Source of the DNA: a virus
Lineage: Duplodnaviria > Heunggongvirae > Uroviricota > Caudoviricetes
DNA: 35,846 nt
Strand: one strand, 5' to 3'
IMG/VR virus record: IMGVR_UViG_2529293061_000007
Part shown: one piece after another, positions 5,061-9,345 of the stretch
How positions within the stretch are numbered: the first letter of the stretch is position 1
Layout: each line of letters starts with the position of its first letter
Notes under the pieces: model-generated
What the model saw: the letters and a program-made list of their open reading frames with translations, nothing else
Database searches by the model: none
What the model was told of the DNA's origin: nothing
Made by a program: the position numbers and the translations under genes

Positions 5061-5423
5061 TTAATGACCTGCTGCGCGGAGTTTTCCGTCAGGTTCACCG
5101 GCAAGAGTCAGTAATTGTCCCTGGTCTTCCTGCAGAATAGTCAGGCGACCACCGCGATTGACATACATCGGCGTTTCGGTGGTGTCTTCTTCGGAAATTT
5201 TCCCGCGGTTAGTCGGGCGAACATATGAGAGTTTGTGTTTGATTTTCACACGGTTCTCATCAAATGGTTCGATTTCCAGGTTGAGTGAGACCTTACCTTT
5301 GGTTTTCGTGTTCATCACACCGGAAGCGACTTCACTGAGAACTGCGCCGATTTTGGTTTCAAATACGCCGCCGTCCAGCTCCCCGATAAATGCCTGCACA
5401 TCAGTACTGCGTTCGCTAGCCAT
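5061..5423 (-). CDS. hypothetical protein (YfdP-like, 120 aa)
   Basis: Protein-like translation begins at internal ATG 5421-5423 (MASERSTDVQAFIGELDGG...) with GAGGAG RBS; the 5' extension of the 226-aa ORF translates to junk. Confidence 0.6.
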   Translation of the reverse strand: MASERSTDVQAFIGELDGGVFETKIGAVLSEVASGVMNTKTKGKVSLNLEIEPFDENRVKIKHKLSYVRPTNRGKISEEDTTETPMYVNRGGRLTILQEDQGQLLTLAGEPDGKLRAAGH

Positions 5424-5471
5424 TTTGCTGCTCCTCATCATATCGACCCTGCAAGGCCGATTAGTTTCTCC

Positions 5472-5560
5472 ACAAAACAGAGAAGAACACCTGCGGTGGC
5501 AGCCGCCAGGATGGATTGGGTTATGAGCCCGTCGTCCGGTGATGCTCTTCTCTGTTTTGT
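5472..5560. repeat. perfect 15-bp inverted repeat (ACAAAACAGAGAAGA / TCTTCTCTGTTTTGT) flanking a 59-bp GC-rich spacer
   Basis: Read directly: 5472-5486 is the reverse complement of 5546-5560; lies in an ORF-free GC-rich segment. Confidence 0.7.
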
Positions 5561-5860
5561 AAAAAGGACGGTCCCAGCCGTAAGCAAGGGTACAAACTGG
5601 TACCGCCAGGACTACACACAGCATAAAGTTGTGGTGCCGGGTGCCTCCCGGTGCCTGGCGAAGGTTGCACACCAGACGGGTGGGTATCCACAGAAGGTCG
5701 ACTGTCAGCCTCAACCTTAACCCGCGTGCGCTGAGCCGCATTCACCACAACGCTAAGGATTCTCTTTGGTTGAAAATACTTAGCTGTTATGTGCCTGTCT
5801 TTTCACCACTTCAGGCTCGGTGGTATCCTTTTAAGCCCGTATACATAAAAGGAAAATCAA

Positions 5861-6106
5861 ATGACTTTTGATGAAAAAGAACTTGATAATGCAATTAATA
5901 AAATCATCGTAACGTCGCTCTTTTCCTGTCTCAGCGACACTCAGCAGAAACAGTTCTACGAATCGGCTTTCAACATGATCGAGCGTTGTTGTTTCTGCGA
6001 TGCCGACGAGTTACCTGAAAAAATCAGGAAACAGTTGGCTGATGCTCTTCGAGTGCGACTTTCTGACCAATTTTCTGAAATGTGCTCTCCGAATTTGGAC
6101 AAATAG
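5861..6106 (+). CDS. hypothetical small protein (81 aa), transcribed opposite to the early-left operon
   Basis: ATG with AAGGA RBS; AT-rich; helical-looking translation; stop TAG followed by a hairpin. Confidence 0.5.
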   Translation: MTFDEKELDNAINKIIVTSLFSCLSDTQQKQFYESAFNMIERCCFCDADELPEKIRKQLADALRVRLSDQFSEMCSPNLDK

Positions 6107-6299
6107 AAAAAGGCCATTTCCATTCAGGGTCTGATGGAAATACTTCAGCCTGTTCCAAAGCACGGCGTAAAGAGAACACAACTCCAGCCATAATCTGATG
6201 TTTCCCATTGGTCCAGCTATCGCCGCTCTGATCTACAGGGGCGGCTATGTCGTATGACCAAACGACTTCACAGTTATTGTTTAAAATCTGGACTTTCAT
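6024..6299 (-). CDS. hypothetical protein (first ORF downstream of PL; start probably ATG at 6297-6299)
   Basis: AGGTG RBS before internal ATG; but the ORF reads through a terminator-like hairpin and overlaps the convergent + ORF, so it is uncertain. Confidence 0.3.
   Translation of the reverse strand: MKVQILNNNCEVVWSYDIAAPVDQSGDSWTNGKHQIMAGVVFSLRRALEQAEVFPSDPEWKWPFSICPNSESTFQKIGQKVALEEHQPTVS
6101..6141 (-). terminator. candidate intrinsic terminator (tL1-like) on the minus strand
   Basis: 8-bp stem ATTTCCAT/ATGGAAAT (6116-6123 / 6134-6141), 10-nt loop, then CCTTTTTCTATTT on the minus strand; stem is AT-rich, so weak. Confidence 0.35.
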
Positions 6300-6404
6300 T
6301 TCATACACCTGCTTTAACATGAGTGCCTAGTGGCACAACATGACTCAACGAATCATCCTGGACTTCATATGCCCCAGGCGGCTACTTCGTGGGCGTCCTG
6401 CCTG

Positions 6405-6455
6405 TTCGTTGTTTCGCTTGGGTACATTATGTATCTCAAAGGTACATTGTCAAGT
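6405..6455 (-). promoter_or_regulatory. candidate PL promoter with OL operators
   Basis: Minus-strand TTGACA (6448-6453), 16-nt spacer, CATAAT (6426-6431); two GGTACAT motifs overlap, matching the half-sites seen in the cI-cro intergenic region. Confidence 0.5.
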
Positions 6456-6480
6456 ATAAAAAAACCTGCCGAAGCAGGTT
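6456..6480 (-). terminator. intrinsic terminator downstream of cI
   Basis: Hairpin AACCTGC-CGAA-GCAGGTT (6463-6480) followed on the minus strand by a U-tract (6456-6462); 13 nt past the cI stop. Confidence 0.55.
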
Positions 6481-6492
6481 CATAAACATTGA

Positions 6493-7167
6493 TTAGGCTT
6501 TGATTTTGTATCTTCTTGGTTTTCCTGAGAAAATCACTGTACCAATTATAGAGCAATTACCGTTGATCTTAATGTAAGGCTCAGGCCAATTTGGGTTTAA
6601 CGCTTTGAGATAACGCTGTGTCCCATCTTCTATCAACCTTTTGAAGGTGGTTTCACCTGTATCGTGCATCAATGCAATAACGTCGTCACCGTGGCAGGCA
6701 GGTACTTCAGGATCGACAAAAATCATGTCTCCCGGGCGGTACTCATCAATCATTGAATCACCTATCACCCGCAAGATATAAGTCATTTCCCCACAGGGTA
6801 CAGGGCAGGGATACGTTTCTGCTGTGCTCAAATCAACCTCAGAATATCCAACTTCTTTCCATGCTCCGGCCTGTACCCATGATATGACAGGGACTAATGT
6901 GATTTGTTTATTAGTGATTGAAACATCAGGTTTTTTTGTGATGTTCGTTGTCTGGTGTTCTTGATCGAGCCATCCGACAGGCAGGTCGAAACATTTTTCG
7001 ATGTGTCGTGCCATGCTGTCACCGATATTTTTAGTAGCACCATCTCCCATAAACCTGCTGGTCTGGGTTGGCTCGCGATCAATCATAGTGGCAAAGGAAG
7101 AATTCCCGCCAACACCATCTCTCAGTTTTCTGGCGTTAGACCGCCGGATGTCATGGATTGTTTTCAT
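6493..7167 (-). CDS. cI: CI-type phage repressor (N-terminal DNA-binding domain + S24 LexA-like autopeptidase domain)
   Basis: C-terminal GDSM (catalytic Ser) and FKRL (Lys) S24 motifs; divergent from a cro-like gene; essentially leaderless start. Confidence 0.85.
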   Translation of the reverse strand: MKTIHDIRRSNARKLRDGVGGNSSFATMIDREPTQTSRFMGDGATKNIGDSMARHIEKCFDLPVGWLDQEHQTTNITKKPDVSITNKQITLVPVISWVQAGAWKEVGYSEVDLSTAETYPCPVPCGEMTYILRVIGDSMIDEYRPGDMIFVDPEVPACHGDDVIALMHDTGETTFKRLIEDGTQRYLKALNPNWPEPYIKINGNCSIIGTVIFSGKPRRYKIKA

Positions 7168-8403: not shown

Positions 8404-9345
8404 ATGAGCACTAAATTAACCGGCTATGTATGGGATGGTTGCGCTGCATCAGGCATGAAATTATCCAGCGTGGCAATTATGGCCCGCCTGGCTGATTTCA
8501 GTAATGACGAAGGTGTGTGCTGGCCATCAATTGAAACCATTGCCCGCCAGATTGGCGCGGGAATGAGTACCGTCAGAACGGCTATCGCACGGCTGGAAGC
8601 AGAAGGCTGGTTAACGCGTAAGGCGCGTCGCCAGGGTAACCGCAATGCGTCGAATGTTTATCAGCTTAACGTTGCGAAGCTTCAGGCAGCGGCATTTTCT
8701 CAACTGTCAGATTCTGACCCGTCAAAATCTGACGCATCAAAATCTGACCCGTCAAAATTTGATGCGTCGAAATCTGGCAAAAAAGCGGGTTTTCACCCGT
8801 CAGAATCTGGCGGGGATCCGTCAGTAAAATCAAAACATGATCCGTCAGATAAAAAAACTTCTCGTCCGGACGCTTCGCAACCGGACACGCAGACGGCTGA
8901 ACAGGAGTTTTTAACTCGCCATCCTGATGCGGTTGTATTCAGCCCTAAAAAGCGCCAGTGGGGAACGCAGGGTGATTTGACCTGCGCACAGTGGCTCTGG
9001 AAAAAAATCATCGCCCTGTACGAGCAGGCCGCCGAATGTGACGGCGAGGTGGTTCGTCCCAAAGAACCGAACTGGACAGCCTGGGCAAACGAAATTCGCC
9101 TGATGTGTGTGCAGGATGGTCGTACTCATAAACAAATCTGCGAGATGTACAGCCGCGTCAGTCGCGATCCGTTCTGGTGCCGTAACGTGCTCAGCCCGTC
9201 GAAGCTGCGGGAAAAATGGGATGAGCTTTCCCTGCGCTTATCGCCGTCCGTCAGCACGTACACCGAAAAACGCGAAGACCCGTACTTCAAAGCCAGTTAC
9301 GACAACGTGGACTACAGCCAGATCCCGGCAGGATTCAGGGGGTGA
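8404..9345 (+). CDS. phage replication initiation protein (O-like, N-terminal HTH) with iteron-containing linker
   Basis: 313-aa ORF; N-terminal HTH-like region; central SDPSK/SDASK repeats encoded by tandem DNA repeats; sits at the lambda O position. Confidence 0.7.
   Translation: MSTKLTGYVWDGCAASGMKLSSVAIMARLADFSNDEGVCWPSIETIARQIGAGMSTVRTAIARLEAEGWLTRKARRQGNRNASNVYQLNVAKLQAAAFSQLSDSDPSKSDASKSDPSKFDASKSGKKAGFHPSESGGDPSVKSKHDPSDKKTSRPDASQPDTQTAEQEFLTRHPDAVVFSPKKRQWGTQGDLTCAQWLWKKIIALYEQAAECDGEVVRPKEPNWTAWANEIRLMCVQDGRTHKQICEMYSRVSRDPFWCRNVLSPSKLREKWDELSLRLSPSVSTYTEKREDPYFKASYDNVDYSQIPAGFRG
8705..8850 (+). repeat. tandem iterons (probable phage origin of replication) inside the O-like gene
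   Basis: Four tandem 15-bp units TCTGACCCGTCAAAA / TCTGACGCATCAAAA / TCTGACCCGTCAAAA / TTTGATGCGTCGAAA (8713-8772), further CCGTCAG motifs, then an A-rich tract GATAAAAAAA. Confidence 0.65.

Follow-up and report, generated by a model that had tools for sequence, protein, structure and literature searches.

Positions 5424-5860 of the virus record IMGVR_UViG_2529293061_000007 (35,846 nt, the whole of which is called the window here) belong to a prophage of SfV type, as the non-coding leader of its early-left operon, and contain more than one element, each on the minus strand, as are all RNA features below unless stated otherwise. The first is a predicted small RNA of about 190 nt (5561-5752) which, on its sequence, is the SfV-type member of the sRNA-17 / STnc100 / PasD family of prophage RNAs; it is made up of a pseudoknotted domain of 124 nt, a conserved single-stranded stretch of 14 nt, and t1, an intrinsic terminator. 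The second, separate element is an inverted repeat (5472-5560) that acts as RNA, in the form of a long hairpin ahead of yfdP. With a probability of roughly 0.65, the segment as a whole is best explained by a trans-acting prophage small RNA that is ended at t1, together with a distinct leader hairpin before yfdP. Strongly supported, at the least, is that a conserved pseudoknotted RNA ends at the terminator and that the version of it in phage mEp460 accumulates in the lysogen. The stretch 5400-5880 is 99.4% identical to Shigella phage SfV, and this exact segment was matched in over half of the complete E. coli genomes (2,864 of 5,426).

The predicted small RNA at 5561-5752

A permissive Rfam scan of 1.6 kb, the kind of check that the initial annotation of this segment had suggested, gave one meaningful match, a full-length, sub-threshold hit of STnc100 (RF02076) at 5558-5773 (36 bits, E 8.5e-6). 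Sub-threshold STnc100 matches (35-41 bits, E 1e-4 to 5e-6) lie at the same place in the Salmonella phages ST64B and 118970_sal3, the Cronobacter phage phiES15 and the Klebsiella phage Kp4882-1. The gene that follows is yfdP in ST64B and 118970_sal3 and kil in phiES15; because the downstream genes differ, the element is a module of its own. Salmonella phage F1055, whose first gene is rdgC-like, gave no Rfam match and carries a third core subtype (GUUGUGGUAAUCCGCGAAAUGGCGCGGCGG...CCCCACCACAAC); this subtype was seen in L006 (F1055), L248, L254 and L255, in the same slot before the same terminator and hairpin.

The ends of the small RNA were placed, through primers and alignment, from the mapped ends of sRNA-17. 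The latter is a 193-nt RNA of an mEp460-like prophage of E. coli K1 strain RS218, described by 5' and 3' rapid amplification of cDNA ends (RACE) and Northern blotting (PMC7719688, 2020). It is more abundant in stationary phase, and ArcA represses it; deleting it raises yfdP by 2^6.6 and yfdR as well, and yfdP is silent in the RS218 lysogen, at 0.49 reads (PMC7719688). Its authors found no Rfam relative, and listed the SfV-type sequences as 'degenerative' (PMC7719688). We let mEp460 and the published primer table, which gives the ends as CGUUGUGGUGAAUGCG... and ...GGUACCGCUCUUUU (PMC7719688), stand in for RS218. In mEp460 these ends fall at the foot of the closing helix P1 and in the U tract of the terminator. 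Window and mEp460 can be aligned at both RNA ends, the match from the terminator up to yfdP being almost perfect, and they differ in the domain interior. Thus the window has the same locus, the same strand and the same sequence at the RACE-mapped ends, and t1 is the counterpart of the mapped 3' end.

The pseudoknotted domain (5628-5751) scores 145.8 bits with a covariance model, R1, built from five SfV-type sequences, and has five helices. P1 closes the domain by pairing GUUGUGGUG with CACCACAAC (5743-5751 with 5628-5636), and is followed by the hairpin P2, UGCG-GCUCAG-CGCA (5727-5740). P2b (GGGU / ACCC) lies between 5653 and 5723, and P4 (GUCUGGUG / CGCCAGGC) between 5653 and 5681. The strand AAGGUUG that comes after P2b (within 5709-5718) pairs with the loop of P4, CAACCUU (within 5657-5667), to make the pseudoknot. 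P5, CCGGG-AGGCA-CCCGG (5637-5651), is the sole match of its kind in the window; the initial annotation had noticed it from the opposite strand as a short hairpin, CCGGG-TGCCT-CCCGG, and it is real. That annotation had also put forward a structured non-coding RNA centred on the inverted repeat. A structured RNA is indeed present, the main one being this adjacent 124-nt domain and not the repeat.

Model R1 recovered all SfV-type copies, the copy in phage LLS (51.5 bits), STnc100-type copies (24-54 bits) and the mEp460 locus (24 bits, E 6e-4). Covariation on homologues, another check that had been proposed, was assessed in a 60-sequence alignment of SfV-type and STnc100-type elements, which was fitted to the model and therefore leans towards structure: in it 92.4% of the cells are paired, 25 of the 30 pairs have changed on both sides, the covariation score reaches 0.46 as against at most 0.118 when partners are slid, and none of 500 shuffles reaches any of the fold measures. 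The helices shared with STnc100, namely the closing helix, internal hairpins and CCGGG-AGGCA-CCCGG, are backed by covariation in this same model-fitted alignment, in which the P5 pairs are 100% paired. Compensations are also plain in the raw sequences, apart from any fitted alignment: P5 is changed to GGUGG-AGGCA-CCACC in LLS, P1 reads GCAGUG/CACUGC in Kp4882-1, and P2b occurs as GCGGGU/ACCCGU, GCGGGG/CCCCGU, GCGGAA/UUCCGC and GCGAUGA/UCAUCGC. The 'degenerate' sRNA-17 copies of the 2020 paper thus appear to be intact structural variants.

The pseudoknot is wholly different in sequence between lineages, with its complementarity kept: its two strands are found as AAGGUUG/CAACCUU, AAGGCUGG/UCAGCCUU, GACUGAC/GUCAGUC, CAGUUA/UAACUG, GGCAAA/UUUGCC and UGGUUAG/CUAACCA. 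When each strand was compared with its own partner and with those of other types, across 31 sequence types, the mean complementary run was 6.61 for own and 4.66 for cross pairs, and none of 10,000 permutations reached the observed sum. This test took the place of earlier shuffles of the variable region or the loop, which were weakly discriminating (joint criterion 0.74 real versus 0.10 shuffled; per-type p from 0.0005 to 0.6). A MAFFT alignment of the SfV-type cores misaligned the variable middle, and covariance-model alignment was used instead. The covarying pseudoknot is new here, and so is the link that is suggested between sRNA-17 and STnc100 as one pseudoknotted fold. PasD, found by Hfq RIL-seq (in which interacting RNAs are ligated and sequenced) in enteropathogenic E. 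coli (EPEC), enters the family through a 2026 preprint alone, according to which STnc100 and the Hfq-bound PasD of EPEC share structure and a common origin, and are both prophage-borne.

Between the domain and the terminator lies the conserved single-stranded stretch UGCUGUGUGUAGUC (5610-5623). This linker is common to SfV, ST64B, phiES15 and LLS, the mEp460 type having a different one, and is a candidate seed or Hfq-contact region. The terminator t1, as read from the sequence, has its stem at 5566-5609 and a tract of five U at 5561-5565; it thus offers the Rho-independent terminator and U tail that characterize Hfq-dependent small RNAs. A terminator is present in 177 of 193 unique family elements, the distance from the conserved core pattern to the U tract being 35-191 nt (median 53-69 nt). 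The initial annotation had found no U tract after the stem on either strand, which is right for the inverted repeat; the canonical minus-strand terminator directly upstream of it had been overlooked.

Exact-pattern scans of viral and genome collections turned up hundreds of copies of the element, with 39 distinct SfV-type cores in at least nine lineages; these include Escherichia/Shigella and Salmonella phages, and genomes or phages of Cronobacter, Buttiauxella, Lelliottia, Pseudescherichia and Pantoea. STnc100 copies are expressed, as verified by Northern blotting in enterohaemorrhagic E. coli. Some viral contigs hold tandem arrays, with four copies in about 1.1 kb (L018 2324-3351) or three (L027 374-990), and tandem pairs were seen in two others (L151 6308-6808; L221 9821-10399).

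The inverted-repeat hairpin before yfdP

The repeat that had first drawn attention to the segment stands as described: ACAAAACAGAGAAGA at 5472-5486 is the exact complement of 5546-5560 across 59 nt, and its 3' arm ends 48 nt before the ATG of yfdP, as against the earlier estimate of about 50 nt. It extends to arms of 25 nt (5472-5496 and 5536-5560) that are 84% complementary. It is the longest inverted repeat in the window, and the only exact 15-mer inverted repeat there with a gap of at most 120 nt; 100 first-order Markov resamples gave none comparable. As RNA the repeat forms a hairpin of 25-30 bp whose pairing runs out to about 5467-5565 and takes in the t1 U tract, UUUUUACAAAACAGAGAAGAGCAUC at the base being paired with GGUGUUCUUCUCUGUUUUGUGGAGA. 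The fold energy is -57.5 kcal/mol (z = -3.6).

Among 29 distinct arm pairs, the paired positions comprise 507 Watson-Crick, 42 G·U, 5 A·C and 26 other combinations. Double-sided changes are found at stem columns 4, 9, 11, 12 and 15 (for instance A-U to C-G in column 4 and G-C to C-G in column 9), and the arms covary while the spacer ranges from 41 to 74 nt. The asymmetry between G·U and A·C (42:5) means that the repeat has been selected as a minus-strand RNA, and not as a DNA palindrome or a plus-strand RNA. This evidence for a second RNA element is new here.

The loop carries a nearly invariant motif, GACGGGCUCAUAACCCAAUCCA (5512-5533), whose 3' part, CUCAUAACCCAAUCC, is C-rich and free of G; it is essentially unchanged in an alignment of SfV, mEp460, ST64B and LLS. 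With GACGGGCUCAUAACCCAAUCC from this motif as a handle, at least 120 viral contigs were recovered and the 29 arm pairs were gathered. A terminator U tract comes immediately before the hairpin in 136 of 139 contexts, and that terminator is usually the one of a family RNA, of which at least three core subtypes take this place; phiES15 has the RNA and the terminator without the hairpin. Since the hairpin follows family terminators of varied core subtypes, we conclude that the small RNA, its terminator and the hairpin move together as one unit in which the core can be exchanged. This coupling is new here, and the conserved leader hairpin is without prior description in the papers searched.

Setting in the early-left operon and alternative readings

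The cI repressor gene (6493-7167, minus strand) and its terminator (6462-6481) are directly followed by PL, a near-consensus promoter (TTGACA-16-CATAAT, 6426-6453) that points along the minus strand, and the minus strand is therefore the early-left sense. In transcript order come PL, orf33 (6024-6320, minus strand), the interval 5424-5860, yfdP, yfdQ and yfdR. PL position and gene order thus bear out the strand and the operon given in the initial annotation. The start codon of yfdP is the ATG at 5421-5423, with a Shine-Dalgarno sequence GAGGAG at 5431-5436 and a small hairpin before that, at 5445-5458. At the other edge of the interval is an AT-rich hairpin (5844-5873), labelled 'putative rho-independent terminator' in the SfV record U82619.2 and not called by our terminator scan; it overlaps the start of a plus-strand open reading frame (ORF) of 81 aa. 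That ORF (5861-6106, phrog_3311) and orf33 (phrog_3195) converge with an overlap of 83 nt, and the plus-strand gene is antisense to the PL transcript.

Further out, a tRNA-Thr(CGU) gene lies on the plus strand at 1369-1444; we take it to be thrW, the attachment site of SfV-type prophages, in which case the left end of the window is host DNA. At 8708-8809 are iteron-like inverted and direct repeats (GACGCATCAAAATCTGAC and related words), probably a replication origin; similar words fill the yfdO-yfdP spacer of the CPS-53 prophage of E. coli K-12. The homology of CPS-53 to the window begins only at the yfdP Shine-Dalgarno sequence, for which reason it was dropped as a source of expression data.

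Two further features of the leader stand out. The PL-proximal stretch at 6346-6411 is structured and kept with ST64B by compensatory changes (CCUGG/CCAGG to CCGGU/ACCGG, and CAACGAA/UUCGUUG to CAGCGAA/UUCGCUG), and aligns with putL and putR of phage HK022 at CGAAC.GGC and GUYCAGGAUGA. It is a better candidate for a put-type antiterminator RNA than anything in 5424-5860. The other feature is a conserved, sharply bounded 31-nt motif, M1 (CCACCGAGCCUGAAGUGGUGAAAAGACAGGC, 5793-5823), which could be modelled as an H-type pseudoknot with stems CCAC/GUGG and GCCUG/CAGGC and an A-rich third loop; its stems never vary, and so they provide no proof by covariation. M1 has 57 flank variants, and its 5' edge is a sharp mosaic junction. 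In LLS it begins about 15 nt past the PL start, and in a Klebsiella phage it lies 12 nt before a Shine-Dalgarno sequence. It is found both together with the small RNA and in its absence, and was also seen at L243 2390-2420, L242 1502-1532 and L241 1510-1540. A plus-strand hairpin at 5805-5824 that the scan flagged as terminator-like was set aside, as the U tract is absent in the other M1 variants checked by eye. LLS (L243 ~2315-2365) and ST64B (L003 ~1880-1925) have an additional intrinsic terminator on the minus strand, placed between the small RNA domain and PL or M1; these phages, which lack N, therefore have two or three terminators before the first early-left gene.

The segment had been called ORF-free and conspicuously GC-rich. 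The former is true in substance, since no reading frame is conserved; the latter is overstated, because a GC fraction of 0.57 at 5470-5760 does exceed the 0.44-0.45 of the flanks, but the whole interval has 0.519 against a window mean of 0.516. ORFs of 49-80 aa can be drawn on both strands. Some match PHROG families, which are built from other annotators' ORF calls, and none matches Pfam. A decayed or frameshifted protein gene, as held by the Prokaryotic Genome Annotation Pipeline with its 'frameshifted hypothetical protein' on the minus strand (~5438-5748), and for which PHROG matches of a 49-aa minus-strand ORF and a 74-aa plus-strand ORF could be cited, is very improbable. Annotators are at odds over strand and frame, and the expert annotation of LLS leaves the whole corresponding gap empty. 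The 49-aa ORF would start with a TTG within the terminator stem, and is shortened by a stop in LLS. Measured from one invariant anchor to another, the spacing in 39 distinct homologues is 1, 0 or 2 modulo 3 (20, 16 and 3 sequences, respectively), and SfV and ST64B differ in it by one base; as all three values occur, depending on the lineage, no frame is conserved through the region. Substitutions preserve base pairs, not codons. The initial annotation had said that a decayed coding region with an uncompensated stem would speak against its RNA; we find unconserved frames and a compensated stem. It had also offered a protein-binding element. Action of the inverted repeat as DNA, whether as a protein-binding palindrome, a cruciform or a recombination site, would account for a perfect 15-bp palindromic pair that is conserved in many phages, and has only a slight chance of being correct: the 42 G·U positions, against 5 A·C, would be mismatches in DNA or in a plus-strand RNA, and the arms covary at spacer lengths of 41-74 nt. 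Somewhat less improbable, though still unlikely, is that the repeat is a second terminator, possibly bidirectional, which would insulate yfdP in tandem with t1, have its upper stem as the hairpin and use the A-tract/U-tract base (ACAAAACA / UGUUUUGU) as its U-rich 3' segment. Its base does pair an A-run with UGUUUUGU, as would be seen from either strand, it always lies directly 3' of t1, and the silence of yfdP in the RS218 lysogen would fit. However, intrinsic terminators have a GC-rich hairpin, a short loop and a U tract, and here the stem is AU-rich, the loop is 39-75 nt long and internally structured, and the full hairpin is followed by GGAGAAAC with no free U tract; the terminator scan made no call, and the wobble asymmetry speaks against plus-strand selection.

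The initial annotation had pointed to the place where lambdoid phages keep nut sites, and the position in the early-left transcript suits a boxA and boxB bound by an N-like protein, as would two likenesses that we take to be loose, of the loop motif GCUCAUAAC to boxA and of GCCUGAAG in M1 to the boxB of lambda nutL. This reading finds no support in the window and is highly improbable. No N-like protein is annotated in the stretch from PL to yfdP, and none was found there; orf33 lacks a Pfam match and shows no conservation with the small proteins that other phages have in this place, and three candidates for a conserved N-like protein upstream of M1 proved mutually unrelated, again with no Pfam match. 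No boxA/boxB pair was seen, nor, on reading the sequence, a short boxB-type hairpin with a GNRA-like pentaloop. The domain lies about 670 nt from PL, and the elements at large 600-950 nt.

Several points weigh against the explanation favoured here. The window-wide Rfam scan at gathering thresholds reported the tRNA-Thr only, the 36 bits for STnc100 falling short of the curated gathering score of 47. STnc100, although among the most abundant annotated bacterial small RNA families, has its function listed as unknown. The RNA whose discrete accumulation was measured is of the mEp460 type, the one reported to associate with Hfq is PasD, and the rise of yfdP on deletion of sRNA-17 may be an effect of the inserted cassette. 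A search of the window for targets of the linker gave no exact complement outside its own locus, and duplex energies of -14.4 with the yfdP start and -18.3 with the hairpin loop are near the background of -13.3 ± 3.3. The promoter scan called none in the region, and upstream of P1 the best sigma-70 match is at most 7/12 in 32 of 33 SfV-type regions (half of the STnc100-type copies score at least 8/12). Two candidates were rejected here, AAGACA-17-TATTTT at ~5776-5804, which scores 8/12 and was picked by eye, and GAGAAT, which lies at about -12 to -7 relative to the inferred 5' end and has no -35 element. Given so poor a promoter at P1, the 5' end may come from processing of the PL transcript. 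Ten SfV-type elements, from Buttiauxella, Lelliottia and Pseudescherichia genomes and three viral contigs, lack the terminator and have an ORF start 34-68 nt past the domain, which makes them look like a cis-acting leader. A fold so conserved and complex is also unusual for a plain base-pairing RNA, and it is a guess that RNase III cleaves, or Rho enters, at the hairpin.

The terminator-less elements and the very conserved fold together make a cis-acting role conceivable. The domain, possibly with M1, would then be a nascent-RNA module that alters the polymerase or senses a factor or ligand, and so sets the balance between stopping at t1 and reading through into yfdPQR; by analogy, it would do in lambdoid phages without N what put does in HK022, or work like a riboswitch. 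Consistent with this, unpaired residues are highly conserved along with the fold, the element always occupies the early-left leader before varied first genes (yfdP, kil, rdgC-like, small membrane proteins), a terminator comes directly after the domain, SfV-type copies are without a good promoter of their own, the phages have no N, LLS has been noted in print as a possible user of put-type antitermination, and in our folding the 5' strand of the pseudoknot can pair locally instead, which might permit a switch. Against it, the window has one copy, with nothing of the kind in its early-right operon, unlike HK022 with its putL and its putR, and the HK022 immunity region has no STnc100 or R1 match, so that putL and putR were rejected as homologues. 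Many relatives have a strong promoter and terminator of their own, sit in late regions or form arrays of three or four copies, all of which fits trans-acting genes. Furthermore, sRNA-17 accumulates as a discrete RNA in the lysogen, and the leader beside PL is a separate and better put-like candidate. We regard the cis-acting domain as a minority possibility. Equally doubtful is the broader proposal that fold, M1, put-like leader, terminator and hairpin make up an RNA-only switch between termination and read-through of the early-left operon in the N-less phages SfV, ST64B, LLS, mEp460 and phiES15; were it true, the small RNA that is set free would count as a by-product or as a second output.

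Returning to the trans-acting small RNA with a separate leader hairpin, the following course can be proposed. By homology with sRNA-17, minus-strand transcription would stop at t1 and release a stable RNA with its 5' end at the foot of P1. By analogy with its family, this RNA would act in trans as an Hfq-type regulator, the conserved fold perhaps serving as a scaffold or protein-contact module and the variable linker providing specificity. On induction, polymerase would pass t1 into yfdPQR, for which it would have to resist termination, a property perhaps conferred by the put-like leader beside PL, and the long hairpin would form in the yfdP leader of such read-through transcripts. With low confidence, we suggest that it could be a processing or insulating element, the duplex being of a size for RNase III and the C-rich, G-free loop possibly serving Rho; its activity might set the small RNA apart from the mRNA and hold yfdP at a low level in the lysogen. 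Since terminator and hairpin are fused to the RNA before yfdP, there is a concrete cis explanation that could account for the rise of yfdP in the published deletion. For the read-through of early terminators in lambdoid phages without N, this leader and its put-like segment supply defined elements.

Comparison with known systems

sRNA-17 is among the closest of the described systems. Like the window RNA it lies between the immunity region and yfdP on the same strand, begins with CGUUGUGGUGAAUGCG and has the same P1; the terminators are about 95% identical, the downstream hairpin and yfdP leader are nearly identical, and the lengths are similar (193 nt versus about 190 nt). Its domain differs in having P2 as GCGC-AGGCUGAU-GCGC and P5 as CCGG-AGAUCAGCA-CCGG, another pseudoknot arrangement and another linker, with an R1 score of just 24 bits. 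STnc100 has in common with the window the helix P1 (GGUGAAU...CACCA), an invariant CACCGGGAGGCACCCGGCACCA segment, the multi-helix layout and the 3' terminator, and its sequences also hold a loop-to-strand pseudoknot. For P2 the window has UGCG/CGCA in place of CCCCC/GGGG, and its pseudoknot strand is enclosed by a further helix, P2b. The settings differ too: the window element is in an early-left leader, while canonical STnc100 is near Q, stx or lysis genes, often with a strong promoter of its own. PasD1 and PasD2 of EPEC, whose likeness is known from the preprint, are beside Q and lpxR, unlike the early-left element.

The put sites of HK022 resemble the window domain in being structured RNA in an early transcript of an N-less lambdoid phage, upstream of terminators. 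They suppress termination by acting in cis on RNA polymerase, at the beta' zinc-binding domain. They are about 70 nt long, form two stem-loops and lie directly past PL and PR, whereas the domain is a single copy of 124 nt with five helices, about 670 nt from PL, and on reading shares no sequence similarity with putL. The hairpin recalls the RNase III sites of the lambda N leader and T7 early RNA, which are long, nearly perfect duplexes in early leaders, and like them it lies between an upstream RNA element and the first ribosome-binding site. It differs in its large loop with the conserved C-rich motif, and cleavage of it would be by analogy. StxS is a small RNA that arises by early termination of the Stx phage late transcript; the window RNA would be analogous in its release at a leader terminator that antiterminated polymerase later reads through, and is different from StxS in operon, sequence and fold.

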